Below, piece after piece: positions 4,908 through 64,000 of a DNA stretch of 64,000 nt. The position numbers and the translations under genes are program-made. The stretch covers positions 208,902-272,901 of the forward strand of contig CAWGIY010000009.1 of the NCBI GenBank assembly GCA_963822845.1, given 5' to 3'. Origin of the DNA: an uncultured Chloroflexia bacterium (lineage in GTDB: Bacteria; Chloroflexota; Limnocylindria; QHBO01). The notes under the pieces are model-generated. The model saw only the letters and a list, made by a program, of their open reading frames with translations. It made no database searches and was not told the DNA's origin. Each line of letters opens with the position of its first letter. Within the stretch, counting starts at the first letter, position 1.

Positions 4908-5793
4908 ATGAGACCGATGACCACCGCAACGCGACCCGACGTCCGCATCGCCGAGCGCGCCGGCTTCTGCTATGGGGTGCGCCTGGCGATCGACAAGGCC
5001 AAGCACGCGCGCACCGAGGGCAAGGAGGTCACCACCCTCGGCCAGCTCGTCCACAACCCCGGCATCAAGGCCGATCTGTCCGATCGCGGCATCCGCACCG
5101 CCGACCTGGCCGACCAGGTCGAGGGCGGCACGCTCGTGATCCGCGCCCACGGCGTCCCGAAGTCCGAGTTCGAGAAGGTCAAGGGCGCGGAGGGCCTCGA
5201 GGTCATCGACGCGACCTGCACGTGGGTGCTCCAGTCGCAGAAGGCCGCCCGCGAGCTGGCGGAGGCCGGCTACACGGTGTGCATCATCGGTCACGAGGAC
5301 CATCCCGAGGTCAAGGGCGTGCGCTCGTATGCCGGCGATAACCACGTCGTCGTGGACGACATGGACCGATCAACCTGGGAGCGCGTGCCGCGCACGAAGA
5401 AGCTCGGCGTGCTCTCGCAGTCGACGATCCTGCCCAACAAGCTCGAGGAGTTCGCCGCCTTCTGCCTGCGCCGATGCCACGACATGCGCGTCGTCAACAC
5501 GGTCTGTCCCGGTCACGCTGACCCGCCAGGACGACTCGGTGAAGCTGGCGGCCGAGGTCGACGCGATGATCGTGGTCGGGGGCAAGAACAGCTCGAACAC
5601 GAAGGAGCTGGCGGTGAAGTGCCGCGGCATCCAGGCCGAGACTGTGCACGTGGCCGATGCCGACGAGCTCGCCGCCGAGTGGGGCGAGTGGTTGCGGGGC
5701 AAGCCGCGGATCGGCATCACCGGCGGCACCTCCACGCCCGAGGTCGACCTCGAGGAGGTCCGCGAGCGCGTCTACGCCCTCACGGCGGCGTAG
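4908..5793 (+). CDS. ispH: 4-hydroxy-3-methylbut-2-enyl diphosphate reductase, disrupted by a +1 frameshift near 5515
   Basis: N-terminal ~200 aa (..IAERAGFCYGVRLAIDKA..HNPGIKADL..) lie in frame 0 (ORF 4557..6113). The C-terminal ..TLTRQDDSVKLAAEVDAMIVVGGKNSSNTKEL..ITGGTSTPE.. lie in ORF 5329..5793. Junction at ..NTVCP|VTLTRQ in a 'cccgg' run. Confidence 0.8.
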
Positions 5794-5922
5794 TCGCGCC
5801 GGTTGCCTCAGGGGGTAATCAACGGCCAAGATCGCGCGGATTCCGGGTCATTCGTGACCGTGGGTTGCCCCAGGAGGCAACATCCAACCATGTCGGGGGC
5901 CAAAGCCGGACCAAGTTGGCCG

Positions 5923-7203
5923 TTACTTGCTCCGCGGGGCAACCGGCGCGGCTTCGCCCGGGACAAGGTCGTCGAGCAGCCTTCGCAGACGGCGCCGCAG
6001 CACGCGGTACGAGAGGTGCTGGCGCGCGATGTCGAAGTTGTGCCGCGCGTTGGCCCGGATACGGTCGGGGCTCGCGAGCAGGGACCGCACCCTGGCGACG
6101 GTCGCATCGGTGATCTCGCCGTCGATCTCGATCAGCTTGAGCCCGAGCGGCGCGATGTCGGCGACGTACACCGAGTATCGGTTGACGAGCACCGGCACGC
6201 CGTAGAACAGCGCCTCCAGGAGCGCATTGCCGAACCCCTCGTAGAGGCTCGGATAGGTGATGAGGTCGGCGGCGAGGTACGCGTCGTGGAGCGAGTGCGC
6301 CGGCCGCAGCGGCTTGCCCTCGTGGTCCGGTGCGAAGCGATCCGCGGCATAGGCCAGCCGGACCTTGTGGCGCTCCGCCAGGCGCTCGAGCTCGACGAGG
6401 TAGTCGAGGCCCTCGTCGCCGGCGGGCGAGGTGATGAGCAGGACCGCATCGGGGTCCTCGAGGCGCCCGACGAGCTCGATGGCCAGCTCGATGCCCTTGC
6501 GCGGCACGACGCGCGTCGGCTGCACCACGAGCAACCCGCGCTCGTTCATCCCGAGCTCGTGACGCAGTCGCCGGCGGATGGCCGGGTGGCGGCGAGGCCG
6601 AGGCTGGTCGAAGTCGAAGACGTTCGGAATGACCTTCGAGCGGATGCCGCGCCGCTTCTGCAGCTCGCCCGCGGCCAGGCTGTTGATGCTGACGTGGCGC
6701 ACCCACGGCAGGTCGGGAGGGAAGGCCTCGTCGAGCATCTCCGGCACGACGCAGTTCGCGAAGCGCTCGCGCTCCCACCAGTAGTCGTGGTGATGACCGA
6801 TGGCCGGCAGCTCTGCCTCCTCCACGACCCGTCGCAGCGCAAGGCCGAGCGGCAGGTGCATCGGGATGGCCCACGCGTTCTCGACGATGAGCGCGTCGAG
6901 CGAGCTGGCGCGGACCCAGTCGTGGAGCACGGGCAGCAGCAGGTCGGCGAGGCGGTTGATCTCGGTGCGCACGGCATCGGGGTCGCTGTCCGGGTCGAAG
7001 GCGGCCGCGGTGGCGCGGGCGGCGGGCGGCCAGGTGAAGTGCATCGGCGGGACCAGGCGGGCCTGGTAGCGGAGGGCGTCGACCTCGCCGGCACAGAGGC
7101 GGAGATCGTGGCCCATCTGGTCGAGCACCGTCTCCCACTTGGCGGTCTCGAAGGTCACGCCGTCGACGCCGGCGAGGCGCGTGGCGGCGATCCCGATCTT
7201 CAC
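5923..7203 (-). CDS. GT4-family (group 1) glycosyltransferase
   Basis: 426 aa; GT-B fold and C-terminal E-x7-E-type motif (..YPSLYEGFGNALLEALFYGVPVLV..). Confidence 0.7.
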   Translation of the reverse strand: MKIGIAATRLAGVDGVTFETAKWETVLDQMGHDLRLCAGEVDALRYQARLVPPMHFTWPPAARATAAAFDPDSDPDAVRTEINRLADLLLPVLHDWVRASSLDALIVENAWAIPMHLPLGLALRRVVEEAELPAIGHHHDYWWERERFANCVVPEMLDEAFPPDLPWVRHVSINSLAAGELQKRRGIRSKVIPNVFDFDQPRPRRHPAIRRRLRHELGMNERGLLVVQPTRVVPRKGIELAIELVGRLEDPDAVLLITSPAGDEGLDYLVELERLAERHKVRLAYAADRFAPDHEGKPLRPAHSLHDAYLAADLITYPSLYEGFGNALLEALFYGVPVLVNRYSVYVADIAPLGLKLIEIDGEITDATVARVRSLLASPDRIRANARHNFDIARQHLSYRVLRRRLRRLLDDLVPGEAAPVAPRSK

Positions 7204-7240
7204 GGGGCGATCGTAGGGGATGCGCGGCTAGACTCGTCGG

Positions 7241-8880: not shown

Positions 8881-9076
8881 TATTCGTGGTGGCGGAGTTC
8901 CGGCGGGACGCGTGCTCGTCACGCCGCCGGGCGATGCGCATGAGGCCCTCGCCGTACACCAGGGCTGCGTCGACGCTCAGGCCGGTGGCGCGGTCCAGCG
9001 TCCCCAGCCGCGCGTAGTTGTCGCGCAGGACGCAGAGGGTGTCGAAGAGGTCGTAGTCACTCGGCTGTGGTTGCAT
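8870..9076 (-). CDS. hypothetical small protein (only the N-terminal ~70 aa of ORF 8423..9076 are plausible)
   Basis: ORF opens with MQPQPSDYDLFDTLCVLRDNYARLGTLDRATGLSVDAALVYGEGL.. but runs without a stop across the repeat region and into the 3' end of der, so the true end is unclear. Confidence 0.2.
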
Positions 9077-9182
9077 GATCGTGGTCCTTGACGCTCACCA
9101 ATCTCCCATCGTTGCGTGAGCGAGCGGTGAATCGAACGTGAGAATCTCCTGATCTGCCGATGACCGCTGATATCCTCGCGAC

Positions 9183-10186
9183 GTGACCGATCAGATCGGC
9201 GTCATCGGCGCCGGCGCCTGGGGAACCACCCTTGCCGTGCTCCTCGCCGACGCGCAGCGGCCGGTCAGCCTCTGGACCCACTCGAGCGAGACGGCGGAGA
9301 AGCTGGCGCACGAGCGCACGAACGAGCGGTACCTCCCCGGCGTCGTCTTCCCGCCCAACCTTCGCGTCGTGACCGATGACGCCTACCTCGCCGAGCCACA
9401 CCGCTTCTTCGTGGCCGCCACGCCATCGGCACACCTGCGCGGCACCCTGCGGCGACTCGCTCCGGTGCTCTTCGCCGATGCGGCCGTGCTCAGCGTCGTG
9501 AAGGGCATCGAGGAGGGCACGCACCTGCGCATGAGCGAGGTTGTCGCGCAGGAGCTTCCCGGACGGCGGGTCGCGGCGCTGTCGGGACCGAACCTGGCGC
9601 GCGAGATCGCGGCGGGCAAGCCGGCCGGATCGGTCGTTGCGTCGGAGGACGGCGAGCTGGCGGCGGAGCTCGCATCGGTCCTGTCGTCCGATCGGTTCCG
9701 GGTGTACACGAACCCCGATCTCGATCGGCGTGGAGCTCGCGGGCGCGCTGAAGAACGTCGTGGCACTCGCGGCGGGGACGGTCGACGGGCTCGGCTTCGG
9801 CGACTCGGCCAAGGCCGGGATCATCACCCGCGGCCTTGCCGAGATGACGCGCCTGGGCGTCGCGGCCGGCGCGCAGCCGCTGACCTTCGCCGGACTGGCC
9901 GGCGTGGGCGACCTGATCGCGACGTGCATGTCGCCGTTGTCGCGGAACCGCAGGGCCGGCGAGCTCATCGCGTCCGGTGTCCCGTGGCCGGAGGCGGGGG
10001 AGCGGCTTGGCGGGCGTCGCCGAAGGCGTGGCCACCGTCACCGGCGCGCTGGAGCTGGCGGCCGAGCACGGCGTCGAGCTGCCGATCGCCGAGCAGGTGC
10101 GCGCCGTCGTCTTCGACCACAAGCCGCCGATGGCGGCCGTCGCCGAGCTCATGTCGCGCAGCACGAAGGACGAGCTGGACGACTGA
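9183..10186 (+). CDS. gpsA: NAD(P)H-dependent glycerol-3-phosphate dehydrogenase with two +1 frameshifts (near 9725 and near 10010)
   Basis: Three consecutive frames carry contiguous GpsA sequence: [23 protein letters not shown] | [36 protein letters not shown] | [22 protein letters not shown]; junctions fall in G-rich runs. Confidence 0.8.
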
Positions 10187-11074
10187 TGGCGCGCCCGCTG
10201 CGCTTCGGGATCAACGTCGTCCCGTTGGCGGCCGCCTACGACGGCATCCTCGAGCAGGTCCGCGCGGCCGAGGAGGGCGGGCTGGACCTCGTCGGCATCC
10301 AGGACCACCCGTACCAGCGCCGCTTCCTCGACACGTACTCGCTCATCGCCGACCTGCTGGCACGGACCGATCGCCTGCGCTTCTTTCCCGACGTCACCAG
10401 CCTGGCCGATGCGCGACCCGCCGATGATCGCGAAGGCCGCGGCGTCGATGGACGTGATGAGCGGTGGCCGATTCGAGCTCGGGCTCGGTGCCGGCAACTT
10501 CTGGGACGCGGTGGCCGGCATGGGCCGGCCGAAGCGGACGAACCGCGAGGCGTTCGCCGCGCTCGAGGAGGCGATCGCGATCATCCGCGCCGCGCTCGAC
10601 GTGGGTCCGGAACGGCGGGTCGTGCGCGGCGAGGGCCCGCACTTCCCGGTGCCGGGCTACCCACCAGGCCCGCCGCCGGCGCACCGGATCGGCATCTGGC
10701 TCGGGGTCTATCGGTCACGAGGGCTCGACCTCGTCGGACGCCTCGCCGACGGCTGGGTGCCGTCGCTCGGCTACTGCCGCCGGACGGGCTGGCGCGCGGC
10801 GTCGCGAGCGATCGACGCGTCGGCGCGTGCCGCCGGGCGCGATCCCGACGACATCACCAGGGTCGTCAACCTCGGCGGCGCCATCACCGGCGGCGAGCGT
10901 GGCGACGACGAGCTCACCGGGCCGGTCGAGCACTGGGTGTCCACGCTGGCGTCGTGGGCGACCGACATCGGGATCGACTCGTTCATGTTCTGGGCGGTCG
11001 ATGGCGACGTCGACCAGGTCCGTCGGTTCGCACGTGAGGTCGCGCCCGCCGTGCGCGAGCGAGTCGGCCGCTGA
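10186..11074 (+). CDS. LLM-class F420-dependent (luciferase-like) oxidoreductase with a +1 frameshift near 10408
   Basis: [34 protein letters not shown] in frame 1, then [30 protein letters not shown].. in frame 2 (ORF 10409..11074); start overlaps the gpsA stop (TGATG). Confidence 0.7.
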
Positions 11075-12790: not shown

Positions 12791-14780
12791 TCACCTGGAT
12801 CGGCGGCGCAGGTGGTACGGGACGTCGGCGACGATCGTGTTCGGTCGCGTGAAGAGCCGCAGCTTGAGCCGGAGAGCGGTCTGGTTGTGCAGCAGGTTCT
12901 CCCACCAGTGGCGCGGCACGAACTCGGAGAGCACGACCAGCACCGGGCGCGACGGGTCGTGGCGCTGCAGGACGTCGAGGTAGGCGAGCAGCGGACCGAC
13001 GAGCGCCCGGTAGGGCGACTCGATGACGACGAGCTCGGCGCCGCCTGACCATTCCGGCCACGCGCGACGCAGCTCATCGGCGCCGTCGTTGTCGTTCGTG
13101 ACGTGGACGGCGGTCGCATCGGGCGAGATCGACGTGGCGAAGGCGATCGGCCGCGCGCGCCGGCTCGTCGAGGCGTGCGATCGGCACGATCACCATCGGT
13201 CTGGCGGCAGCGCGGACGGGCGTGCGAGCCGGCCGGACGGCGTCGTCGACGGATCGATAGTGCGCGCGGATCCCGCGCATGAGCAGGACGAGGATCGGGA
13301 TGGCCAGCACGACCATCCAGGCCCCCGCCAGGAACTTGCTCTGCACCACGATCACCGCGATCACCCCCGTCGTCAGCGCTCCGAGGCCGTTGATCGCCAG
13401 GCCGCGTACCCATCCGGCCTCGCGACGTCGCCACCAGCGCACGACCATGCTCGACTGCGAGAGCGTGAACGCGAGGAAGACGCCGAGCGTGTAGAGCGGG
13501 ATGAGCGCGGTGACGCTCGCGCCGAACGCGATGAGCAGGAGCGCCGCGAGACTCGAGAGCGCCACGATGCCGGTGGTGAAAGCCAGCCGCTCGCCGCGGA
13601 ACGCGAACTGGCGCGGCATGAAGTCATCGCGCGCGAGGAAGGAGGCGAGGCGCGGGAAGTCGGCGAAGGCCGTGTTGGCCGCGAGGGCCAGCACGAGGAC
13701 CGTCGCCACCTGGATGAGGACGAAGAACGCGCCGTCGCCGACGAGCAGGCGGGCGATCTGCGACAGGACGGTCTGCTGTTCATGCGGGTCGGGGATGACT
13801 CCGAGCGTGCTGGCCATGAAGCTGATGCCGAGGAAGAGCGCGCCGAAGATCGCGGCGGCCCACACGAGCGTGATCCGCGCATTGCGCCACTCGGGCGGCT
13901 TGAAGGCGGGGACGCCGTCCGAGATCGCCTCGACGCCGGTCAACGCCGCCGCGCCGGAGCTGAACGCCCGCAGGATGAGGAAGAGCCCGAGCGCCTCCCC
14001 ACCGGCCTCCGCGGTCAGCCACTCGGCCGGCGGCGTGTAGTCGGGGAGCGTCCCGGTCGCCAGCCTGAACAGACCGATGCCGACCATCGCCAGGATGGCG
14101 ACGATGTAGACGTAGGTCGGCGCCGCGAAGATCGTCCCGGACTCCCGCACCCCGCGCAGGTTGCCGACCATCAGCACGACGACGATCGCGACGGCGATCA
14201 GCACCCGTTCCGGGAAGAGCTCTGGGACGACCGACGTGATCGCCGCGACCGCGGCCGACACCGACACCGCGACGGTCAGCGTGTAGTCGATGAGCAGCGC
14301 ACCGCCGGCCACGAGCCCCGCGGTCGGTCCGAGGTTGTCGCTGGATACGAGATAGCTGCTGGCGCCGTTCGGGTAGGCGCGGATGGTCTGCCAATAGCTG
14401 GTGGCGACGATCGCCAGGACGACGCAGATCGCGACGGTCAGCGGCATCGTCAGGGCGATGGCGCCGATCCCGGCGAACACGAGGATCCGCATCATCTCCT
14501 CGGTCGCATATGCCGACGAGCTGATGTTGTCGCTGCTGAAGATCGCCAGCGCCTTGAGCTTGGATAGCCGCTCGTGCTCCTCCAGCTCGCTGCTGATCGG
14601 ACGGCCGATCAGGAACGTCCGGATTCGGCGGAGCGTGCGCGTCCAGCCGGGACGATCGAGCACGGTGCGCTCGGTTGCGACCAGCTCGCCTTCGTCGCCG
14701 CGCGCGAAGAGCTCGTCGTACGGGCGCACGATCCGGACGTAGGCGTCCCCGGGCCGCCGCCCGTGTCGTCTCTCGCGCAC
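12791..14780 (-). CDS. kimA: KimA-type (APC superfamily) K+/H+ symporter, frameshifted near 13165; exact start uncertain
   Basis: Closely parallels B. subtilis KimA as I recall it (LSKLKALAIFSSDNISSSAYATEE, YPNGASSYLVSSDNLGPTAGLVAGGALLIDYTLTVAVS, LRAFSSGAAALTGVEAISDGVPAFKPP, ANTAFADFPRLASFLARDDFMPRQFAFRGERL). The track ORF 13074..14963 ends early, but the conserved cytoplasmic C-terminal domain (..AVHVTNDNDGADELRRAW..VPRHWWENLLHNQTALRLKLRLFTRPNTIVADVPYHL) continues in another frame to a stop at ~12791. Confidence 0.75.
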
Positions 14781-14838
14781 CTCGAGGTGCGCGTCGATGC
14801 TCCTCCGTGGAGCCGCGTCGCGCCGGTCGCTCACTGCA

Positions 14839-16032
14839 TCACGGCCTGGGAGTTCGCTCTGGCGGCGAGTCGCTGGCGCCGATGAGATGGACTTCGAGTC
14901 CCGGAAGCTGCCGATGCAGCTCGTCGATGAACGATCGACGCAGAGGACCGCGCCGCGCGTCACCGAGCTCGCGGCTGAGGACGACCTGCGTCGTGTGGCG
15001 CTCGCGAGCCGCCTCCGCCACGCGGGCGATCGGGCTGGATGCGGCCGGACGCACGATCGTGGCGCCGAGCTCCTCGGCGAACTCGAGATGCTCGCGCGTG
15101 TCCTGAGATCGATCGCGCGGCAGCTGGGCGGAGTCGTCGTCGACGGCCGCGATCGCGATCAGCGGTGCCCGCAGCGCGGCCGCGAGGCTCGCGGCTCGGC
15201 GAGCGACCAGGCGGGACGTGGGCCGATGGTCGACGACCAGCAGCAGCCGCTCGCGGACCGGCCACGGCTCGGTCTTGCCGCTGCCCGCCATGATGCCCTC
15301 CAGCTGCGCGTCGACGCGTTCGGCCACGTACCGCAGCGCGAGCTCGCGCAGCGCGGTGAGGTTCGCTTCGGTGAAGAAGCGGTCGAGCGCCGTCTGCGCG
15401 CGGTCGGCGGCGTACACGTTCCCGTGCCGCATCCGTTGTCGCAGTGCGCGGGGGCTCATGTCGACCAGCTCGATCTCGTCCGCGGCGAGCAGCACCTTGT
15501 CGGGAAGCCGCTCGTGCACGGGTGCGCCGATGATCGTCTCGACCGCGTCGGCGACAGACTCCAGATGCTGGACGTTGCAGGTGCTGATGACGTCGATGCC
15601 GGCCGCCCTGATCAGGTCGACGTCCTGCCAGCGCTTCGTCCGCGGCGAGCCCGGGGCGTTCGTGTGCGCCAGCTCGTCCACGAGCGCGACGGCCGGCTTC
15701 CGCTCGATCACCGCATCGGTGTCCATCTCCTCCAACGCGACGCCGTGGTACTCGATTCGGCCGCGTGGAATGATCTCGAGCCCCGCGAGCAGCTCCTCCG
15801 TCCGCGGGCGGCCATGCGCCTCGACGAACCCGACGACGAGGTCGGTGCCGCGCGCCGCGCGGCGATGAGCCTCCTGGAGCATCTCGAAGGTCTTGCCGAC
15901 GCCGGGAGCCATGCCGATGTAGACGCGGAGGCGGCCCTGCTGGCGGACCTCGCCCTCGGTCTCGAGGCGCCGGAGCATCTCGTCGCCGGTCGGGCGTCCC
16001 TCGCGCACGTCGTCAGCCATCGGTGAGCGCAT
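14839..16032 (-). CDS. kdpD: stand-alone KdpD N-terminal sensor protein (KdpD domain plus USP domain; no transmembrane or kinase part)
   Basis: 397 aa; Walker-A-like GMAPGVGKT and ..VISTCNVQHLES.. are KdpD-N hallmarks, followed by a universal stress protein (Usp) family domain (USP-like region); overlaps the 3' end of kdpC by ~20 nt. Confidence 0.8.
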   Translation of the reverse strand: MRSPMADDVREGRPTGDEMLRRLETEGEVRQQGRLRVYIGMAPGVGKTFEMLQEAHRRAARGTDLVVGFVEAHGRPRTEELLAGLEIIPRGRIEYHGVALEEMDTDAVIERKPAVALVDELAHTNAPGSPRTKRWQDVDLIRAAGIDVISTCNVQHLESVADAVETIIGAPVHERLPDKVLLAADEIELVDMSPRALRQRMRHGNVYAADRAQTALDRFFTEANLTALRELALRYVAERVDAQLEGIMAGSGKTEPWPVRERLLLVVDHRPTSRLVARRAASLAAALRAPLIAIAAVDDDSAQLPRDRSQDTREHLEFAEELGATIVRPAASSPIARVAEAARERHTTQVVLSRELGDARRGPLRRSFIDELHRQLPGLEVHLIGASDSPPERTPRP

Positions 16033-16591: not shown

Positions 16592-16603
16592 CGGTTCAGT
16601 CGC

Positions 16604-18767
16604 TCAGGCCAGGCCGATTCCGGCGATCACGAGGTCGATGAGCTTGATGCCGACGAAGGGCGCGACGAGCCCGCCGAGGCCGTAGATGAGCAGGTTGCGC
16701 TTCAGCAGGTCCGCGGCCGGCGCGGCCCGGTAGCCGACGCCGCGAAGCGCGAGCGGGATGAGCGCCACGATGATCAGGGCGTTGAAGATCACCGCCGACA
16801 GGATCGCGCTCTCCGGGGTCTCCAGCCGCATGACGTTGAGCGCTTCCAGCTGCGGGATAGGCGGTGATGAACAGCGCCGGCACGATCGCGAAGTACTTCG
16901 CCACGTCGTTGGCCACGCTGAAGGTGGTGATCGCCCCGCGCGTGATCAGGAGCTGCTTGCCGATGGCGACGACCTCGATCAGCTTCGTGGGGTCCGAGTC
17001 GAGGTCGACCATGTTCGCGGCCTCCTTCGAGGCGGACGTGCCCGAGTTCATCGCCAGCCCGACGTCAGCCTGGGCGAGGGCGGGGGCGTCGTTGGTGCCA
17101 TCGCCCGTCATCGCGACGAGGTGCCCTTCGGCCTGCTCCCGCCGGATGATCGCGATCTTCTCCTCGGGCTTGGCCTCGGCAACGAAGTCGTCGACGCCTG
17201 CCTCGTTGGCGATGGTGCGAGCCGTCAGCGGGTTGTCGCCGGTGATCATGATCGTGCGGATGCCCATGCGGCGCAGCTCGGCGAACCGTTCGCGGAGACC
17301 GGGCTTCACGGTGTCCTTCAGCTCGATGACGCCGAGGACCGCGCGATCGCGTCTGAGGGCCAGAGGCGTTGCTCCCGCGGCCGCGATGCGGTCGGAGACG
17401 ACTCGCAGGTTCGGCGGCGCATCGCCGTCGACGCTGGCCGCGATCGCGTCGACCGCTCCCTTCTCGTAGCGAACGCCGCCAGCAACGACCCCGCTGGTCC
17501 GCGTCTCCGCGCTGAACGGTGTGGTCACGGTGATCGACGCGGTCGCCGCGGCGACGGCCGCATCGTCGCCACCCGTCGCGCCCAATTCCACCAGGCGTTC
17601 GCGGGCAAAGGCGACGATCGAGCGACCCTCGGGTGTGTCGTCGCCGATGGATGTGAGCAGGGCAGCCCGCACGACATCGGCCTCGGGGATCCCGTCGACC
17701 GGGGTGATGCTGGCCGCAAGGCGATTCCCGAACGTGATCGTCCCGGTCTTGTCGAGCAGGATGACGTCGACGTCGCCACAGGCCTCGACGGCCCTCCCCG
17801 AGAGGGCGAGGACGTTGAACCGCGCCACGCGGTCCATTCCCGCGATGCCGATCGCAGACAGCAGGCCGCCGATCGTGGTCGGGATCAGGCAGACGAGGAG
17901 GGAGACGAGCACCGCCACGCCGAGCGTCGCGCCGGCGAACGCACCGAACGGGCGAAGCGTGGCGACGGCGAGCAGGAACACGAGCGAGAGGCCGGACAGC
18001 AGGATCGACAGCGCGATCTCGTTCGGGGTCCGCTGGCGCTTCGCCCCCTCGACCAGCGCGATCATGCGGTCCAGGAAGGTCTCCCCCGGATCGGCGGTGA
18101 CCCGGATGACGAGCTCGTCGCTGACGAGCTGTGTGCCTCCGGTCACGCTGCTGCGGATGTCGGTCCCGGGCTCCTTGAGCACCGGAGCGGACTCGCCGGT
18201 GATGGCGGCCTCGTTGACGTATGCGACGCCCTCGATCACCTCGCCGTCCCCCGGGATGATCTCGCCGGTCCGGACAACGACGATGTCGCCACGTCTCAGG
18301 GCCGACGAACCGACCTCCTCGAAGGTGCCGTCCTCGCTGCGACGCCTGGCGATCGTCTCGGATCGGGTCCGTCGCAACGTCGCAGCCTGCGCGCGGCCAC
18401 GGGCCTCGGCGACGGCCTCCGCATACGTCGCGAAGAGGACGGTGAACCAGAGCCACACGGCGATCTGGGCCTGGAACCCGATCTCGCGGCCGAAGTCGCC
18501 GATGTCGCCGCCGATGCCGAGGAGCTCCAGCATGAGGAGGACGGTCACCAGCGCGGCGGTCAGCTCGACCACGAAGATCACGGGGTTCCGAATGAGCTGC
18601 CGCGGATCGAGCTTGCGGAACGCGTGGGGAATCGCGGCGCGGAGGAGCTCCGGATCGAAGACGCCGCGGCGCCGCGGTGGCTTGCCCGAGGCCGCGCGGA
18701 GCTCGCGATCGGCGCGCTCTTCCCGGCGGCTGAGCCGTGACGTGTCGATGATCGACAGGATCGACAT
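16604..18767 (-). CDS. kdpB: K+-transporting P-type ATPase subunit B, frameshift near 16854 (extra C in a CCC run)
   Basis: DKTGTIT phosphorylation site, [22 protein letters not shown]. The C-terminal [32 protein letters not shown].. sits in ORF 16604..16831. 'tat ccc gca gct gga' versus expected 'tat ccg cag ctg gaa' ([13 protein letters not shown]). Confidence 0.85.
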
Positions 18768-23668: not shown

Positions 23669-23671
23669 CGC

Positions 23672-48272: not shown

Positions 48273-48931
48273 GCGACGGCCCGCGGGTCGCCCTCACCTT
48301 CGACGCCGAGCACCCGGACCGCCCGCACCACGGCACCCACGCGAGCTGGGTCCTCGACGAGCTCAAACGGCTGGACGTGCGCGCATCGGTCTTCCTTCAG
48401 GGCCGATGGGTGGAAGCGTTCCCCGAGATGGCCCGGCGCGTGGCGGCCGAGGGGCATCTCGTCGGCCACCACTCCTTCTATCACGCGCGGATGCCGCTCC
48501 TCAGCGCAGATGGCTTCACGGAGGACGTCCGCGAGGCCGAGCGGGTGATCACCGAGGTGACCGGCACCGATCCGCGGCCCTGGGCGCGCTTCCCGTTCGG
48601 CGCCGGCGCCGACCGCGCCGACCTCGTCGCCCGCCTGGCCGATCTGGGCTACCGGCACGTCGGCTGGGACGTCGAGGTCTACGAGTGGGATCCCGGTCGT
48701 ACGGCCGATGAGATCGCGTCGCGCGCCGTCCACGGCGTGCTGAGCCACGGCGACGGGGCGATCGTCCTGCTCCACACCTGGCCGGACCCGGTCGCCCCCG
48801 CTCTGGGCGAGATCGTCGAGCGGCTGCGCGGCGAGGGCGCTCGCTTCGTCGGCGTCGACGAGCTCGACCTGCCGGCCGACCTTTCACCAGTCGCCAACCC
48901 GCGGCCTCCGGTCGCGGCGCCGATGGGGTGA
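48269..48931 (+). CDS. polysaccharide/carbohydrate deacetylase (CE4, NodB homology domain)
   Basis: GTG start overlapping the permease stop; NodB motifs (..LTFDAEH.., ..GHHSFYH..). Confidence 0.7.
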   Translation: MSDGPRVALTFDAEHPDRPHHGTHASWVLDELKRLDVRASVFLQGRWVEAFPEMARRVAAEGHLVGHHSFYHARMPLLSADGFTEDVREAERVITEVTGTDPRPWARFPFGAGADRADLVARLADLGYRHVGWDVEVYEWDPGRTADEIASRAVHGVLSHGDGAIVLLHTWPDPVAPALGEIVERLRGEGARFVGVDELDLPADLSPVANPRPPVAAPMG

Positions 48932-49917: not shown

Positions 49918-49943
49918 TCCACCACGGGGCTAGGCTGTTCGCG

Positions 49944-51079
49944 ATGACCTCCGAGGAGACCCGCGACGGCGTCCCGCTGACGAACCTCGACCAGCCGCTG
50001 TTCGAAGGGGCGGAAGCGACAAAGCGCGACCTGGTCGACTACCTCGACGCCGTCCGCGACCGGATCCTGCCCGAACTGGCGGACAGGCCGCTATCGGTGA
50101 TCCGGGTGCATCGGGGCCAGGAGGCCTTCATGCAGAAGAACGTGCCGCGCTCCACGCCGGAGTGGGTGCGCACGGTCAGCCTCTGGTCGGAGAGCTCGCG
50201 CCGTGACGTCGCCTACGCGCTGTGCAACGACCGACGCACGCTCGTCTGGTTCGCCAACCAGCGGGCGGTCGAGTACCACCCGACCCTCGTGCGCGTGGAG
50301 CGCTTCGAGAGCCCGACGCACCTCGTCATCGACCTCGATCCGCCCGACGCCGGTGCCTTCGCCATGGCGGTGAGTGCCGCCCACCTGGTGCGGGCGGCGC
50401 TCGCCGAGGTGGGCATGGCGGCGCCGTGAAGACGAGCGGCGCGAAAGGCCTGCACGTGTACGTCCCGGTGGAGGGCGAGCCGTCCATGGCCGATGCGGCC
50501 GCCGCCACCCGGGCGATCGCCGAGCGGGCGACGCGCCTCGACCCATCGATCGCCACGACGGCATTCATGAAGGAGGACCGCGACGGGAAGGTCTTCATCG
50601 ACGCGACGCGCGTCGGCTGGGCCTCGGTCATCTCTGCGTACAGCCCACGAGCCCGGCCCGGCACGCCCGTGTCGTTTCCGGTCGCATGGGATGATCTCGA
50701 CGACGTGTCGCCGACGGAGTTCACGATCCACACCGCGGTCGGGCATCTCGGCGACCGTGACCCGTGGGCCGAGGCGATGCCGACCCCCCAGGCGCTGAGT
50801 CCCTCGCTGATCGAGGAGGGCGCATCGATCCCGGGGGGCCGCGTCCAGGCCATGCACGAGGGGAAGCGGCGCGCGCGTGCGCCGTCGCGCGTCCGGGACC
50901 TCCGTGACGAGCGGGTGCCTGCCGGGAGCGGGGCGTCCGCCCGTCAGCGATTAAGGCATTGGGTGCTATATCGGCTGACACCAGTGGGAGGGGGGAGAGT
51001 CGGTCCGTATATCCGGTATATACCCTCGGCGCCCCAACAGGTTGTGGTATCGTTCGCGGGGGTACCACCACTGGTATAG
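49944..51079 (+). CDS. stand-alone LigD-type NHEJ polymerase/primase domain (PolDom), frameshift near 50425, with low-complexity C-terminal extension
   Basis: ..LVWFANQRAVEYHP..LVIDLDPPD.. (ORF 49944..50429) continues as ..VKTSGAKGLHVYVPV..FIDATR.. in ORF 50222..51079. Confidence 0.7.
51005..51025. promoter_or_regulatory. AT-rich GTATAT-CCG-GTATATAC motif ~70 nt upstream of nrdR
   Basis: Third occurrence of the GTATATAC family; lies inside the unusual C-terminal tail of the PolDom ORF. Confidence 0.4.
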
Positions 51080-51094: not shown

Positions 51095-51571
51095 ATGCGC
51101 TGTCCCCGTTGCGAGGCAACCGGCACCCGCGTCATCGACTCGCGGGACCTCGACAGCGGCAGCACGATCCGTCGTCGCCGCGAGTGCGAGGCCTGCAGCT
51201 ATCGGTTCACCACCTACGAGCGACCCGAGGGCGCGCGCCTCGTCGTCGTCAAGCGCGACGGCGCCCGCCAGGACTTCGACCGCGAGAAGCTGCGCGCCGG
51301 CCTGCTCAAGGCGCTCCAGAAGCGGCCGGTCACGCTCGACCGGGTCGAGGCGGCCGTGGAGGAGATCGAGGCCACACCTGCGCGCGCGCGGCGATGCGGA
51401 GGTCCCCTCGACCGAGATCGGACGCCTGGCGACCGATGCGCTCGCGAGCTCGACCAGCTGGCCTACATCCGGTTCGCATCGGTCTATCACGCCTACGACG
51501 ACATCGAGACGCTGCAGCGCGAGGTCGATCGGCTCATCCGCGGCGCTCGGAGTAACATCGGCGCCGAATGA
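51095..51571 (+). CDS. nrdR: transcriptional repressor NrdR, with a compensating +1/-1 frameshift pair (~51375 and ~51445)
   Basis: Zinc ribbon [21 protein letters not shown]; ATP-cone. Residues ~95-118 read as garbage in-frame, while the conserved [24 protein letters not shown] is in the +1 frame (ORF 51042..). Confidence 0.8.
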
Positions 51572-52153
51572 TCCTGTCCGACCGCGACATCCGCGCCGAG
51601 ATCGAGGCCGGCCGGATCGTCATCGATCCGTTCGTGCCCGACGCGGTCCAGCCGTCGAGCGTCGACCTCCATCTCGGCAACCGGTTCCGCGTGTTCCGGA
51701 ACAACCGCACCGCGGTCATCGACCCGCGCGAGGAGCAGCCGGAGCTGACCGAGCTGGTCGAGATCGCCGGCGACGAGCCGTTCATCCTCCATCCCGGCGA
51801 GTTCGTGCTCGGCGCCACGTTCGAGCGCGTCGGCCTGCCCGACGACCTCGTCGCGCGCCTCGAAGGCAAGTCGAGCCTCGGACGCCTCGGGCTGCTCATC
51901 CACTCGACCGCCGGCTACGTGGACCCCGGCTGGGAGGGGACCCTGACCCTCGAGCTATCGAACGTCGCCAACCTGCCGATCAAGCTGTACGACGGCATGA
52001 AGATCGGCCAGATCAGCTTCCAGCGCCTCAGCTCGCCGGTCGAGGTCGGCTACGGCGACGCGCGCATCGGCTCGCAAGTACCGCGGACAGACCGATCCGA
52101 CCGCCAGCCGCTACCACGCCGATTTCGAGCGCGGGCGGGTCGTGCGCCGATGA
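51568..52153 (+). CDS. dcd: dCTP deaminase, frameshift near 52078
   Basis: [45 protein letters not shown]..; the conserved C-terminus [25 protein letters not shown] is in another frame. Confidence 0.8.
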
Positions 52154-52228
52154 CCGCCCGGCGAGCCGCGCCGCTGCCACGAGATCGGTCCGGCCAGGCC
52201 GTTCGCCGGCGGGATCACCGTCCGCGTC

Positions 52229-53044
52229 GTGCGCGCCGGATGGTTCCGGCCCGATGCCGGCGGCTTCTTCGGCGTCGTCCCGCAGCCGCTGTGGGTCGCG
52301 CTTCGTGACGACCGACGAGCGCGGCCGCATCCTGTGCCGCCTGAACCTGCTGCTGATCGAGGCCGCGGGCAGCGGCTGCTCGTCGAGACCGGCACCGGCG
52401 TGCGGATGAGCGACAAGGACCGCGACATCAAGGGCGTCGAGGGCGGCGACCCGGTCGCGGCGCTGCGGGCGGTGGGGGAGGATCCGGCGTCGATCGACTA
52501 CGTCGTCGTCACCCATCTCCACTACGACCACGCCGGCGGCATGCTCGGACCGATGGGTCGCCCGGCCTTCCCGAACGCCCGCTACGTCGTGCAGCGCGAC
52601 GAGGCCGAGGCCGCCCACGGCGACGAGCTGCGGCTGCAGGGGATCATGGAGGTCGAGCAGCTCGACGCCGTCCGCGCCGCCGGCCAGCTGGCCGAGGTCA
52701 ACGGCGAGGTCGAGCTCGTCCCCGGCGTTCGCGTGCTCCGCACCGGCGGGCACACGCGCGGCTCGCAGGCGGTGCTGATCGGCGTCGATCGGCCCGGCGG
52801 CCGCTCGGCGACCCGACCGGATCGCGCGATCTTCTGGGGCGACCTGATCCCGACGCGCTGGCAGGTGCCGGTGCGCTGGACGAGCGCCTACGACGACTAC
52901 CCGATCGACGCGATCGAGGTGCGCAACGAGCTCGTCGCCCGCGCCGCCGCCGAGGGCTGGTGGTGCTACTTCACCCACGATCCGGGCGAGATGCCGGTGC
53001 GCCTCGAGGCCACGGAGCGCGGGTACCGAGCGCTGGAGGGCTGA
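52229..53044 (+). CDS. MBL-fold metallo-hydrolase, with compensating frameshift pair (~52300 and ~52375)
   Basis: HxHxDH motif ([12 protein letters not shown]). The N-terminal ..[23 protein letters not shown].. segment is in a different frame, between in-frame flanks ..PLWVAL.. and ..[13 protein letters not shown].. Confidence 0.65.
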
Positions 53045-53206
53045 CGCGGAGCGCGCGGTAGATCGAGCCGATTCGCACCGCGAGCGCGGTCTTGCGGGGC
53101 ATCGGCATACACGTTCGACGCGAGCGCGGCACTCCGGATACCATGATCGGGCCACCTTCGAGCGCCCTGGATGTCGACCCCCACGTCGAAAGGACGCACT
53201 TCACGA

Positions 53207-53634
53207 ATGAACCTTCCCTCGTTCGCGCTGCGCCGCGGCGCGCTCATCACCCTCATCCTCGTCCTCGGGCTCGCGCTGGCCGCATGCGGCGGCGGCTCCG
53301 AGAGCGAGCCTGCTGACGGCGGCACCGGAGGCGGCACCGCCACCGTCGCGGACGGTGAGGTCGCGATCATCGCCGACAACCTCGAGTTCAACGCGACCAC
53401 CATCGAGGCGCCGGCCGGCGAGGAGTTCACGATCACGCTCGTCAACAACGACTCCCCGCCGCACAACATCAGCATCTACACCGAGGAGGGCGGCGAGGAG
53501 ATCGTGCTCGGCGACGTGATCACCGGGCCGGCCAGACGGTCGACACCGTCGTTCCGGCGCTCGAGCCGGGCACGTACTACTTCGAGTGCGACATCCACCC
53601 GGAGATGAACGGGACGGTCGTCGTCGGCGGCTGA
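53207..53634 (+). CDS. blue-copper (cupredoxin, plastocyanin/halocyanin-like) lipoprotein, frameshift near 53525
   Basis: Lipobox LALAAC; ..FTITLVNNDSPPHNISIY.. then the type-1 Cu ligands YYFECDIHPEMNGTVVV in the next frame. Confidence 0.65.
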
Positions 53635-53746
53635 GCCTTGCCCCACCAGACCGATGACGGGGCGCGGCCATCGCGCCCGCGCTCCTCCGCGTCCGCCAGC
53701 AGCTCGTCGACGATCTCGACCATGCGGGCCGGGTCGAGCGGACCGA

Positions 53747-54245
53747 TCACCTCGCGCAGGACGGTCCCGACTCGCCGATGAAGTAGTGGCGCGGCAGCCC
53801 ATCGGTCCCGGCCCAGTCGTAGTAGATGTCGAGGCCGGGGTCGAGCAGGATCGGGTAGGTCACGCCGTAGCGGTCGGCGAAGTCCGCGACGGCGGCGTCC
53901 TCCTCGCCCCAGTTGACGCCGAGGATCAGCAGCTCGTCGGCGTACTCCTCGGCGATGCGCTGCATGGCCGGCATCTCGGTCCGGCACGGCTCGCAGCTGG
54001 TGGCCCAGAAGTTGACCCAGGTGATGCGGCCGTCCGCATCGGCCGAGCGACCAGTCGCGACCGTCGAGGTCCGTCGCGTCCAGCGACGGAGCGCGGCCTG
54101 GCCGACGAGCGTGCCGGATCGGCCATCGGGCGCGCCTCGCAGGAGCGGCACGCTGACGAGCCAGGCGAGCAGCGCGCCGAGGAGGACGATCGCGGTGAGC
54201 CAGAGCAGGCTGTATCGGCGCCGCCGCAGGACCGGATGGGATCAT
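53747..54245 (-). CDS. TlpA/ResA-like membrane-anchored thiol-disulfide oxidoreductase (thioredoxin fold, CxxC), with frameshift near the 5' end
   Basis: ..ITWVNFWATSCEPCRTEMP.. redoxin motif and TM anchor LLWLTAIVLLGALLAWLV upstream. The only ATG (overlapping the upstream stop, ATGA) is in a different frame from the body. Confidence 0.6.
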
Positions 54246-54487
54246 CGGTCCGCGAAGATCTCGTCGAGGTCGGGGCGGGTGATGACGAGCTCGGCGCGCT
54301 CGGTGCCGTCGACGACGAGCACCGGGATGCGGTGCGCGTAGCGCAGGAGGAGGTCGTCATCGGTGCCGATGTCGATGGCGTCCCAGCCGTCGGTTCCGAG
54401 CATGTCGTCGAGCAGGACGCTCGCCTCGGCGCAGAGGTGGCAGCCCTCGCGGACGTAGAGGGTGGCTCGGGGCATGGCCGGGATCAT
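54242..54487 (-). CDS. glutaredoxin-like small redox protein (CxxC)
   Basis: 81 aa; ..TLYVREGCHLCAEA.. thioredoxin-fold motif. Confidence 0.6.
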   Translation of the reverse strand: MIPAMPRATLYVREGCHLCAEASVLLDDMLGTDGWDAIDIGTDDDLLLRYAHRIPVLVVDGTERAELVITRPDLDEIFADR

Positions 54488-54688: not shown

Positions 54689-55400
54689 ATGCCGCGACTG
54701 TCGTCCGCCCTCGTTGCCGAGGCGATCGGCACCTTCCTCTTCTTCTTCCTCGGAATGGGTGCCGTCGTGCTCGGCCAGCACACCGGGGATACGAGTGGGG
54801 GCCTCATCGGCGTCGCGCTGGCCCACGGCCTCGCGCTGGCGGTGCTCGTCTCCGCGTTCGGCGCGGTGTCGGGCGGCCACTTCAACCCGGCGGTGACGTT
54901 CGGCGTCTGGATCACCGGCCGGATCGATCCCGCTCGCGCGGCGATGTACGTCATCGCCCAGCTGCTCGGCTGCCGTCGCCGCGGGCTTCGCGCTGCGGTT
55001 CGTGTTCCCGGAGACGTCCTGGGAGCCGGTCGATCTCGGGACGCCGGCCCTCGGCGAGGGCATCGACGTCACGCAGGGCATCGTCATCGAGGCGGTCCTG
55101 ACGATGGTGCTGCTCGTCGCGGTGTTCGGCACGGCCATCGACCCGCGCGCGCCGAAGATCGGTGGCCTGGCCATCGGCCTGGCGGTCGCGGCCGACATCT
55201 TCATGGGCGGCCCGCTGACCGGTGCGGCGATGAACCCGGCGCGCTGGTTCGGGCCGGCGGTCGCATCGGGCACGTACGACGACTGGTACGTGTGGTGGAT
55301 CGGTCCGCTGGTCGGTGCGGCGATCATCGCGCTCGTGTACCGGTTCGTGTGGGAGGAGTCCGCGGAGCCCGAGGTGACGCCGGCCACGCCGCAGGGCTGA
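54689..55400 (+). CDS. MIP-family channel (aquaporin / glycerol facilitator), frameshift near 54967
   Basis: First NPA (..SGGHFNPAVTFG..) in ORF 54689..; second NPA (..GAAMNPARWFGPA..) in ORF 55002..55400; junction ..AQLLG|AVAAGFALRF. Confidence 0.75.
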
Positions 55401-61344: not shown

Positions 61345-61966
61345 TCAGGCCGGCGGCCCCTCCTGGGCCGCCCGCTGAGCGCGCAGCAGCAGCGAACCGG
61401 CCACCAGCGCGGCGACCGCCGGCAGGGTGAGGTAGGCCAGCAGCAGTGCGACGAGCCCCCGAACCGGGATCGGGTTATCGGGCACTGCGTCGCGGAGCGC
61501 CTCGAGCTCGTTCGGCGAGCGCGTCCAGCTCGACGCCGATCGCCTCGGCATCCGTGCGCACGTCGGAGACCGATCCCGACGAGACCTCGAGCGTCGCGGC
61601 CAGCTCCCCGGCCTGGTCGGCGGCATCGGCGAACTCGTCGGCGAGCGGCTGGAGCGGCTGGGTGCCGAAGATCGACAGGTTCATCGCCGCCGAGAGCGCG
61701 TCGAGCGTGGCACCCGCATCCGCGGACAGCGTGGCCGCCTGGGCGATCGAGCCCTCCGCGTTCACGAGGGAGGCGTCGATCGAGTCGAACGAGTCGGCGG
61801 CCGCCGCGGTGGAGCGTGCCGCCGCCTCCAGCGTCGTGTCGGTTGCCGCCGTGAGCCGCTCGAGCTGCCCGGCGGCGTCGAGGCCGAACGTGAAGCCGAC
61901 GATCGAGAGGGCCAGGCCGACGAGGCCGTAGGCGACCAGTCCCCATGCCAGCGTGGAGCGTCCCAT
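61345..61966 (-). CDS. hypothetical membrane protein with Ala-rich coiled segment, frameshift near 61500
   Basis: ORF 61475..61966 (N-terminal TM, ..LDALAERA) continues as ..LEALRDAVPDNPIPVRGLVALLLAYLTLPAVAALVAG.. in ORF 61345..61626. Confidence 0.4.
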
Positions 61967-61971
61967 GATCC

Positions 61972-62497
61972 TCAGTCCTCGGCGAAGAAGGGGTCGTCGC
62001 CGTACAGCTCGAGCCAGCGACGGCGCATCTGTCGGATCGTGGCGGCCACGGCGGCGTCGGGCGTTCCGGGCGGCAGGAGGCTCCCGATCGCGGCGCGCAC
62101 GCGGTCGCTGTTCTCCATGCCGAGCAGCGCCAGGTAGTCGGCCACGCGCTGCGCCGCGCCCTTGCCACGCGCCCGCTCGCGGACGAGGACGTCGGCCTCG
62201 TGGTCGAGGGCGCCGGCGTAGTCCGCGTCGGTGCGCTCGATCTCGGCGAGGAGGAGCGGGATGTCCTCCAGCCGCGGGTCGGAGTATGCCCAGCGCAGGA
62301 AGCTGTCGTTCGGGCCGGCCTGGCGGTCGTGATGGCCGGCGTGGAACTGCTGGAGGTACTGCCGGCGTTCTGCCTCGGTGCGTGTCAGCGCGATCTGGAC
62401 GAGGTGGCGCATCTCCGGCGTCCAGCGTCGGAGGGATTCGACGAACTGGCGCAGCGTGAGGCTGCCGGCGGGCTGGGGTTGAAATCGATGCTCATGA
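61972..62497 (-). CDS. hypothetical protein (His-rich motifs HVHEHRF / HAGHHD)
   Basis: C-terminal ~175 aa of track ORF 61972..63147; putative GTG start just downstream of a GTATAC motif. N-terminal part of the track ORF is antisense to the SBP gene. Confidence 0.35.
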
Positions 62498-62574
62498 ACA
62501 TGCTGCACGGGCGACCGTATACTAGCCGCCGTGCGCCGAGCCCTGTCCCTGGCCCTCCCCATGGCGTGGGCCGC

Positions 62575-64000
62575 ATGAGGCGCGCGAGGGGGGTCTTCGC
62601 GGTCGTCTTCGCGGTCCTGCTCGCCCTCGTGGCGACCACTGCCGGTGCGCCGATTCAGGCGGCGGGGCCGCCGCTGCGCTTCCTGGCCGGACCCGCCGGC
62701 ACGCTCGATCCGGCGTTCATCGCCGATGCCGCCGACGTCCAGCTGCTGCTCCAGCTCTACGCCGGGCTGACGCGCCTCGACGAACGCGGCGAGGCGTATC
62801 CATCCCTCGCCTCGGGCTGGGAGGTGAGTGACGACGGGCTGACCTACCGCTTCACCCTGCGCGACGACCTCGTGTTCAGCGACGGCTCGCCCCTCGTCGC
62901 CGAGGACGTCCGCCGCTCGTGGCTGCGGCTGCTCGACCCGGCCACCGGCGCGAGCGCGCCCGACGTGCTCACCGTGATCGAGGGCGCCAGCTGAGCGCCA
63001 CGCCGGCGCGGTGGGCGATGACGAGGTCGGCATCGAGGCGCCGGACGACACCACGCTCGTCGTGCAGCTGCGCCATCCGGCGTCGTACTTCGTCGAGATC
63101 ACCGCGACGCCGGCGACGTTCGTCGTCCCGCCGGCCGCGGACGCCACCCCGACCTGGCAGACGCCGGACGCATTCGTCGGCAGCGGCCCGTACGTCGTCG
63201 CCGAGACCGATGGCGCCGACCTCGTGCTGCGGGCGAACGAGCACTACGTCGCCGGACCGCCGCCGATCGACGAGATCCGCTGGATCGCGACGATCGAGAG
63301 CAACGGCACCACGGCCTTCGCGAACGACGAGGTCGATCTCGTGCAGGTACCCGGCTGGGACGCCACGTGGATCGCGTTCGACGCGGATCTCGGCCCATCC
63401 CTGCACGCCGCCGAGCCGCTATCGGTCAGCTACTTCGGCTTCGACACGGCCAGGCCGCCGTTCGACGACGAGCGGGTCCGCCGCGCCTTCGCCCTCGCGA
63501 TCGAAGGAGAGCGCCTGGTCGCGCTGGCCGAGGGTGCGTCGGCGACGGCAGCCGACAGCCTCGTCCCGCCGGCGATCTGGCCGGACGGCTTCTCGCCGGC
63601 GTCGGACCACGATCCCGACGAGGCGCGCCGCCTGCTCGACGAGGCAGGGTATGGCGACCGCTCCGACCTCGGCACGATCGTCGTGAGCGGCGCCGGGCTC
63701 GGCGTCGGCCCGGCCGTCGAGATCTGGCGCGAGGAGCTCGGTGCCGACATCGAGATCGAGGTGATGGACTTCGCGGAGTACCTCGCCGTGCTCGACTCGC
63801 GGCCGCCGGGCATCTTCACGGTCAACTGGATCGCCGACTACCCGTCGCCGCACGCGATCTACGGCCTCCTCCTCGAGCCGGGCGCCGGGAGCAACTACGG
63901 CGACTGGCGCGACGATCAGTTCGTCGAGCTGCTCGAGGCGGCGGCGCGTGCGCCGGAGGCCGAGGTCGGGGCCGCATACGACGCGGTGGACGCGTACGTC
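62575..64000 (+). CDS. ABC transporter substrate-binding protein, family 5 (peptide/nickel/opine type), frameshift near 62988, 3' end outside the window
   Basis: Signal peptide MRRARGVFAVVFAVLLALVATTAG; ..DVQLLLQLYAGLTRLDE.. then, after VIEGA|, ..VGDDEVGIEAPDDTTLVVQLRHPASYFVEITATPATFVV.. in another frame, open to the window end. Confidence 0.75.

Follow-up and report, generated by a model that had tools for sequence, protein, structure and literature searches.

Frameshifts in a Candidatus Limnocylindria contig segment most likely reflect long-read consensus errors

Bacterial genomes that have become rich in pseudogenes by reductive evolution, such as that of Mycobacterium leprae, contain many frameshifted genes, housekeeping genes included. 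In programmed frameshifting, as in prfB (+1), dnaX (−1) and IS transposases, a protein continues in another frame past one site. Assemblies and metagenome-assembled genomes (MAGs) built from Nanopore reads alone carry indel errors that shift frames or truncate genes, a problem gauged by IDEEL scores or coding density (PMC9262707, PMC12313526). According to Sereika et al. (2022, PMC9262707), polishing is required for Nanopore bins below 40x, and the Microflora Danica (MFD) MAGs, which are Nanopore-only and were made with Flye and one round of Medaka, have been noted by their authors to carry Nanopore-associated errors at lower coverage (PMC12313526).

We analyzed a 64,000-nucleotide stretch (the window) of a soil-bacterium contig. 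It resembles the Nanopore-only MAGs in that single-nucleotide indels fragment conserved genes and single-nucleotide edits mend them, in that these errors are missing from short-read assemblies of the lineage, and in that sister MFD loci are likewise insertion-biased and patchy. Published accounts describe such errors as worse at low coverage and stress homopolymers of at least four bases, whereas those in the window fall mostly outside such runs, with insertions exceeding deletions. Their confinement to strain-divergent blocks suggests an origin in microdiversity or local coverage more than in homopolymer chemistry. The window shares with M. leprae-type decay many frameshift-interrupted genes, housekeeping genes among them, but differs in lacking nonsense mutations and deletions, in the purifying selection on its genes, in having near-identical relatives that are intact, and in a pattern that follows sequencing technology. 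As in programmed frameshifting, proteins go on in another frame past a site; however, no slippery site is conserved, orthologues do not keep the shift, and single genes have several shifts of mixed direction. Judging from sequence comparison, it is very probable that the frameshifts are consensus errors in a noisy-long-read metagenome assembly of a Candidatus Limnocylindria (Chloroflexota) population, most likely a Nanopore-only assembly of the Flye/Medaka type.

Frame breaks and their repair

Comparators were 5–25 related Ca. Limnocylindria loci, some on contigs 98–99.8% identical to the window. An event was called only if at least 80–85% of the 5–25 comparators, which included short-read MAGs, agreed. 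The comparators at 85–92% identity are long-read MAGs too; short-read MAGs and database proteins agree with them. A scan of JGI metagenomes with KdpA returned relatives at no more than 60% identity, usable for kdpB and kdpD and not for nucleotide-level comparison. Exact look-ups of five window proteins gave no match.

An earlier note on this DNA had described dense frameshifts, about 20 events in at least 15 genes. All 15 genes that it listed have broken frames, with junctions no more than about 20 nt from the positions it reported when these are re-located against the 98.4% identical locus L001, locus L163, the 5–25 loci and protein references. The density is also real, but the number of events was too low: we count 29 or more small indels (some 21 insertions and 8 deletions), nearly all of 1 nt. 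About 15 of about 62 genes, a quarter, are broken, and indels unique to the window and not a multiple of three (non-3n) occur at 1.27/kb, whereas the median for short-read relatives is about 0.2/kb, so breakage is far beyond chance. Against some 29 indels of 1–2 nt there are no nonsense mutations and no large deletions; frame segmentation and the comparator loci revealed no in-frame stop splitting any window gene. Five pairs of neighboring events lie at most 70 nt apart, several of them compensating +1/−1 pairs (simulated mean 0.88, P = 0.001).

The first affected gene is ispH (4908..5795, + strand), with a +1 shift at ~5507–5511 (TGTCCCGGTCACG; expected TGTCC(C)GTCACG). The extra base lies in CCCGG at ~5509, with which the Viterbi frame switch at 5505/5506 and a three-frame reading agree, and the repaired protein matches LYTB over 1–266 of 267 positions. 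Two private indels (−1 at 8885, +1 at 9083) fall in the der–gpsA spacer or small-ORF region (8884..9083, unstranded). Compared with L001, gpsA (9183..10186, +) has +1 shifts at 9722 and 10007; the L001 gene is intact at 333 amino acids, and repaired window gpsA matches the N- and C-terminal domains fully. The Luciferase-like monooxygenase (LLM) gene (10186..11074, +) has a +1 at 10406, followed by a −1 at 10774 and a +1 at 10800 that compensate each other; this pair was absent from the earlier list and was found against L001. In the kimA-like APC permease gene (12791..14852, − strand), with a +1 at 13149, the 688-aa L001 ORF matches the window in frame −3 and then in frame −1, crossing 13148. 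An extra C at ~16854–16857 turns CC into CCC on the coding strand of kdpB (16596..18760, −); 84 KdpB references change frame at 16834–16889, a three-frame reading was made, and the repaired protein has 720 amino acids. The KdpD-type histidine kinase gene (22100..23639, −) has two +1 shifts. The one at ~22480 is seen as a frame jump at 22455–22503 in 23 KdpD references, with HSPs in frames −1, −2 and −3, and the other lies within 22998–23040, limits set by ORF overlap.

Frame breaks resume in the LigD primase-polymerase domain gene (49944..50900, +; −1 at ~50411–50418), which once repaired matches LigD_Prim-Pol over 1–254 of 254. In nrdR (51095..51571, +), a +1 at 51375–51378 is compensated by a −1 at 51442–51444; both are supported by 25 comparators and L163, and the repaired protein matches the ATP-cone over 2–86 of 88. 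Correcting the +1 at 52075 in dcd (51568..52153, +) gives a protein of 194 amino acids that aligns along its whole length (100%) with more than 100 dCTP deaminases in the database at 97% identity, many of them also of 194 amino acids. The MBL-fold hydrolase gene (52150..53044, +) has N-terminal indels at 52159–52176 that add up to a net +1, a +1 at 52293–52296, a −1 at 52364 and an ambiguous −1/−2 at 52805/52816, which may be a true 3-nt codon deletion in an indel-variable spot. A −1 at 53526 breaks the cupredoxin-domain protein gene (53171..53634, +), and the TlpA/AhpC-like thiol-disulfide oxidoreductase gene (53688..54249, −) has a −1 at 53765, a +1 at 54045, a +2 at 54089–54090 and a +1 at 54234. 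LigD, NrdR, Dcd, MBL, cupredoxin and TlpA are all intact in L163. Thirteen aquaporin (MIP) references jump frame at 54965–55001 in the window gene (54689..55400, +; +1 at 54971), which after repair matches MIP over 9–222 of 222. The last two events are a +1 at 61511 in a membrane protein gene (61345..61966, −) and a +1 at 62991 in an SBP5 solute-binding protein gene that runs off the window (62572..64000, +), where 11 references jump frame at 62986–63002. In all, 10 proteins regain end-to-end Pfam matches after repair.

Some candidate lesions were rejected. An extra jump at 62.49–62.54 kb is seen at the equivalent position in almost every locus, short-read loci included, and is therefore a gene-boundary or upstream artefact of stop-to-stop ORFs; a jump at 58,000 was dismissed as an artefact too. 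Overlapping ORFs at 0.4–4.8 kb, suspected of being one shifted gene, look from their translations like distinct, intact genes for an M50 protease, ScpA, ScpB, an RluB-like protein, Cmk and a PlsC-like protein.

Distribution, sequence context and sequencing technology

The region 23100..50400 (unstranded) has no frame-breaking indel. Viterbi segmentation gives single ORFs throughout, Pfam matches are full-length over 24–37.8 kb, and a search for junctions against relatives over 36–50 kb found none. Outside the SBP gene, this region is 99.7–100% identical to L162/L163. The stretches 0–5.5 kb and 55.0–61.5 kb are also clean. Uniform placement of events did not yield a gap of 27 kb in any of 20,000 simulations. 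The earlier division of the window into dense and clean zones thus stands, with two corrections: the first dense zone reaches ~23 kb rather than 17 kb, and 55.0–61.5 kb is clean, not error-dense.

In 1-kb bins compared with the strain in ERZ25039550, no indels occur in the 12 bins below 0.7% mismatch and 23 occur in the 15 bins at or above it. Mismatch and indels per bin are correlated (rho 0.55, p = 0.003; Mann–Whitney U p = 0.0009), with adjacent 1-kb bins being non-independent. The association is not monotonic, since the blocks of SBP (14% mismatch) and kimA (12–16%) carry 0–1 window indels. The second dense zone sets in at 49.9 kb, where identity drops from ~99.8% to 86–91%. Restriction of indels to strain-divergent blocks suggests low per-haplotype coverage as the likely cause of the zones, a pattern that would fit locally low or mixed read support.

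Only about three events lie in 3-base runs (ispH CCC, kdpB CCC, MBL GGG) and none in longer ones (no homopolymer in the window exceeds 6), which led us to reject the classic long-homopolymer Nanopore error. Nine of the 19 listed insertions were scored as run length 1, two of which (kdpB and MBL 52296) sit in 3-base runs on inspection. An error linked to a methylation motif was also rejected: several insertions are near GATC, but this motif occurs 687 times in the window and shows no significant enrichment (p = 0.08–0.48). No other motif tested stands out near events after multiple testing.

Rates of unique non-3n indels differ by sequencing technology. They range from 0.12 to 2.89/kb in 13 MFD long-read loci and from 0 to 0.71/kb in 12 short-read loci (Mann–Whitney p = 0.0009). 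Insertions outnumber deletions by 91:24 in the MFD loci, where they are patchy, and by ~21:8 in the window, compared to 6:12 in short-read loci. Protein-level frame jumps number 0–2 per short-read locus and up to 14 in MFD loci. The indels of the sister Nanopore-only MFD loci are at other positions, non-homologous to those of the window. L162/L163 itself has frame-breaking indels in its SBP gene, which is unbroken in the window. All six of six window proteins looked up lie on a single 706,766-bp contig, a contiguity typical of long-read assemblies; NCBI and ENA both carry this contig, as they do the MFD MAGs.

Weighing the explanations

If the lesions were real, the strain would very recently have pseudogenized about a quarter of its block genes, whether in a mutator or indel-prone episode, by relaxed selection under a lifestyle of host dependence or cross-feeding, or by decay of recombined DNA. 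Decaying genomes do hold many frameshifts, and the clustering of lesions in strain-specific blocks could in principle perhaps reflect recently imported DNA. However, the broken genes have dN/dS of 0.11–0.39 in the repaired frame, with dS of 0.18–0.38, similar to intact neighbors and not near 1 as relaxed selection on pseudogenes would give. We see neither the mixed lesion spectrum nor the lineage-shared lesions expected of genome decay: nonsense mutations and large deletions are lacking, and no window lesion is shared with L001 (98.4% identical), L163 or the 5–25 other loci, relatives being intact even on contigs 98–99.8% identical. The normally essential ispH, gpsA, nrdR and dcd are among the affected genes, four lesions fall in a single gene of 560 nt, compensating pairs exceed expectation by far, and the signature recurs elsewhere in sister long-read MAGs and in none of the short-read MAGs. 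We therefore hold recent pseudogenization to be very unlikely. Even less likely is the specific version in which real, insertion-biased frameshifts were quickly gained in recombined strain-specific blocks and inactivated ispH, gpsA, nrdR, dcd and others; if true, this would call for a mutator or an indel-prone process linked to recombination tracts, together with a dependent lifestyle.

Alternatively, the window could be correct and the apparent indels could be errors in the comparators or misalignments in GC-rich divergent sequence. Several comparators are indeed error-prone long-read MAGs, and alignment is ambiguous at 52805/52816, at 52550/52555 and, in the comparison with L163, over a large part of the cupredoxin gene. 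The agreement demanded across comparators, short-read MAGs included, argues against this, as does protein-level evidence, which is independent of nucleotide alignment and yields the same junctions. The window's own GC3 periodicity changes frame at the junctions, and its unedited reading frames do not encode the conserved proteins, leaving this explanation a very slim chance. We give the least credence of all to biological decoding of the shifts, be it through programmed ribosomal frameshifting, through transcriptional slippage or at phase-variable contingency loci. The three events in short C/G runs would suit it, but runs at shift sites reach at most 3 bases, with no long homopolymer or SSR tract of the phase-variable kind and no common slippery heptamer in the heterogeneous contexts. 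Insertions and deletions both occur, with as many as four shifts in one gene; all orthologues are plainly in frame, with no shift site conserved; and the affected genes are not among known recoding targets.

Consensus error, which the earlier note had favored over biology, accords with lesions that are private, with one-base edits that restore proteins under purifying selection, with the lack of nonsense mutations, and with the same patchy, insertion-biased signature elsewhere in sister Nanopore-only MAGs and in no short-read MAG. Single bases would have been wrongly added (about 70% of events) or lost in the consensus, so that a gene caller or translating reader would meet a conserved protein jumping frame. 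The errors probably sit where the assembled haplotype departs from near-identical strains that co-occur with it. In such blocks, few supporting reads, along with reads of foreign strains in the pile-up, may cause polishing to fail, while blocks shared among strains would pool coverage and give a clean consensus.

Consequences for gene content

The gene breaks are almost certainly single-base errors with no true gene loss, and the organism most likely has intact copies of all the named genes, among them ispH, gpsA, nrdR, dcd and kdpB. The finding is mainly a quality flag. About 25% of window genes would be annotated in error as pseudogenes or split ORFs, and metabolic reconstruction would falsely conclude that the MEP pathway (ispH), glycerol-3-phosphate synthesis (gpsA), Kdp potassium uptake and dCTP deaminase had been lost. 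Where long-read MAGs come from strain-rich soil, indel errors can gather in strain-specific blocks rather than homopolymers, so checks of coverage or coding density over a whole MAG can overlook them. Before gene loss is claimed, annotation must take frameshifts into account or the sequence must be polished with short or HiFi reads.

Locating and repairing the frameshifts

The window has a GC content of 70% and very strong GC3 periodicity (~0.9). Exact look-up of six of its proteins placed them all on a single 706,766-bp contig in NCBI and ENA. Frame breaks were sought by three independent routes: codon-position Viterbi segmentation, near-identical contigs, and ORFs and alignments of relatives. 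The segmentation, with seven states based on codon-position composition and in-frame stops disallowed, switched frame on the same strand, with no gene boundary in between, at 5505, 9718, 10002, 10409, 13146, 16857, 22506, 50421, 52069, 53525, 53771, 54971, 61511 and 62989; there were no switches at 0–4.9 kb or 23.6–50.4 kb.

Near-identical contigs were obtained through exact protein look-up in one ENA metagenome assembly, ERZ25039550. One, contig_56599, matches window 5806–11079 at 98.4% and has whole gpsA, luciferase-like monooxygenase (LLM) and kimA-like genes; relative to it, the window has an extra base at 9083, 9722, 10007, 10406, 10800 and 13149 and lacks one at 8885 and 10774. The other, contig_55237, aligns to window 37780–49921 and has whole LigD, NrdR, Dcd, MBL-fold hydrolase (MBL), cupredoxin and TlpA genes.

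The 502-aa membrane protein at 56.1–57.6 kb, used as query against species-representative genomes, gave 80 loci. The nearest are ‘uncultured Chloroflexia’ MAGs (MFD#####.bin; 85–92% nucleotide identity, contigs of 0.2–2.2 Mb), followed by short-read (k141/NODE) Candidatus Limnocylindria MAGs at 70–85% identity. By tblastn of short-read-locus ORFs and MAFFT alignments against 5–25 relatives, we placed window-unique indels at 50418 (−1), 51375 (+1), 51442 (−1), 52075 (+1), 52176 (+1), 52296 (+1), 52364 (−1), 52805/52816 (a pair), 53526 (−1), 53765 (−1), 54045 (+1), 54089 (+2), 54234 (+1), 54971 (+1), 61511 (+1) and 62991 (+1). The kdpB shift is backed by 84 KdpB references (CC has become CCC, one C too many), the KdpD-type kinase has two +1 shifts (~22480 and inside 22998–23040), and ispH has one surplus base within TGTCCCGGTC.

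Single-base edits give complete proteins with Pfam matches running end to end across the junctions: LYTB 1–266/267, LigD_Prim-Pol 1–254/254, ATP-cone 2–86/88, MIP 9–222/222 and both domains of GpsA. Repaired Dcd (194 aa) aligns along its entire length, at 97% identity, with over 100 database entries for dCTP deaminases of 193–195 aa. All 15 genes named in the earlier note are therefore confirmed as broken. The lesions outnumber those it listed: the count is 29 or more, and a single 560-nt gene holds as many as four.

One apparent jump, upstream of the SBP5 gene (62490–62545), recurs at homologous positions (for example ~5479 in locus L002 and ~5299 in L010) in almost every relative, short-read MAGs among them. 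The jump is probably no error but a by-product, at the gene boundary or in the upstream region, of translating ORFs from stop to stop.

Indel zones and strain variation

The division into error-dense and clean zones described in the earlier note holds: the longest event-free gap is 27.4 kb, compared with a maximum of 24.5 kb in 20,000 simulated trials. Identity to contig_55237 is 99.7–100% at 37.8–44 kb and 46–49.9 kb, drops to 86–91% over 49.9–54.6 kb, precisely from the start of the dense zone, and is back at 98% by 55.4 kb. Across every 1-kb bin alignable to the two ERZ25039550 contigs, mismatch correlates with indel count (Spearman rho 0.55, p = 0.003): 12 bins below 0.7% mismatch have 0 indels, and 15 bins at or above it have 23 (Mann–Whitney p = 0.0009). 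Sequence common to co-occurring strains would pool read depth and polish cleanly, and strain-specific blocks with low or mixed read support would retain draft-level indels. The association of mismatch and indels is non-monotonic: two divergent blocks, SBP_bac_1 and kimA, are almost indel-free in the window.

The SBP_bac_1 gene (44649–46133) is hypervariable between contigs otherwise ~99.8% identical, with 14% mismatch and dS 0.35 between flanks at ≤0.3%; the contig_55237 copy is frame-broken. The mosaic identity of this block, the 50–55 kb block and the kimA block suggests recombination among co-occurring strains.

Gene content also varies. Between the kimA-like gene and the two-component system, window 14800–21300 encodes kdpFABC, several small proteins and a KdpD N-terminal/Usp protein that stands alone, none of which occurs at the corresponding 11005–11330 of the 98%-identical contig_56599 locus. 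Conversely, 5266–7900 of that locus encodes a chromate transporter and a 207-aa protein that window 11079–11720 lacks. Between the Glrx-like and CcdA genes, the aquaporin (54600–55400) is swapped in contig_55237 (L163 17487–19719) for genes of a carbonic anhydrase and a DJ-1/PfpI protein together with small ORFs, which makes this a further variable islet. KdpD appears split across the operon, with an N-terminal KdpD/Usp-domain protein downstream of kdpC (14839–16032, minus strand) and a DUF4118-HisKA-HATPase part upstream of kdpE at the opposite end (22100–23639, minus strand). An ORF at 30194–31156 (plus strand) with a full MoaC domain and a MoCF_biosynth (MoaB/Mog-like) domain looks like a fusion gene in a molybdenum-cofactor cluster, adjoining moeA.

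Origin of the indels

The MFD MAGs belong to the Microflora Danica long-read catalogue, assembled from Nanopore reads only with Flye and then one Medaka round; its authors associate lower coverage with Nanopore errors (PMC12313526). Nanopore consensus indels give rise to frameshifted gene calls, and bins below ~40x need polishing (PMC9262707). The indel signature tracks sequencing technology. Lineage-unique non-3n indels number 1.27 per kb in the window, 0.12–2.89 in 13 MFD loci and 0–0.71 in 12 short-read loci (Mann–Whitney p = 0.0009 by technology), with insertion:deletion counts of ~21:8, 91:24 and 6:12, respectively. In MFD loci they are insertion-biased, patchy and at non-homologous positions, a pattern matched by the window. 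Protein-level frame jumps reach 14 per MFD locus, compared with 0–2 per short-read locus, where most are a single recurring boundary artefact. The SBP gene of the ERZ25039550 contig carries its own frame-breaking indels, and the window copy is intact.

The events do not fit classic long-homopolymer error: about three events lie in 3-base runs (ispH, kdpB and MBL 52296) and none in longer ones, the longest homopolymer of the window being 6. No methylation-type motif enrichment was found around the events. The errors are probably low-support consensus noise.

Very recent mass pseudogenisation, which would make the indels real, is very unlikely, being contradicted by privacy, selection, lesion spectrum and technology. 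All lesions are private to the window, shared by none of the comparators. In repaired frame, dN/dS against contig_55237 is 0.14 for LigD, 0.17 for NrdR, 0.11 for Dcd, 0.21 for MBL, 0.39 for cupredoxin and 0.11 for TlpA (dS 0.18–0.38), and against contig_56599 it is 0.20 for gpsA, 0.17 for LLM and 0.15 for kimA. The ratios show that the broken genes evolved under purifying selection, and intact neighbouring genes give similar ones. The spectrum comprises ~29 small indels and, by Viterbi segmentation, no nonsense mutations. Five pairs of neighbouring events are separated by ≤70 nt, where uniform placement predicts 0.9 (P = 0.001), and several of these five are compensating +1/−1 changes (in nrdR, MBL, LLM and TlpA).

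That the window is correct and the comparators wrong or misaligned is even less probable: it conflicts with short-read MAGs and database proteins, which agree with each other and with the codon periodicity of the window itself. Programmed recoding or phase variation, the least credible of these explanations, fails because there is no conserved site or repeat tract.

The frameshifts are thus almost certainly, on this comparative evidence, an assembly artefact and not a biological feature, and the sequencing or assembly error favoured by the earlier note is supported by privacy, selection, spectrum and technology alike. Dense patches of private single-base insertions also occur in public GTDB-representative MFD loci (L046 10504–11306; L019 13484–19255; L017, L018, L036 and L043), including nine within 800 nt, inside the 502-aa membrane-protein gene of L046; deposited species representatives therefore share the artefact. 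The finding calls for caution in annotation and in inferring gene loss.
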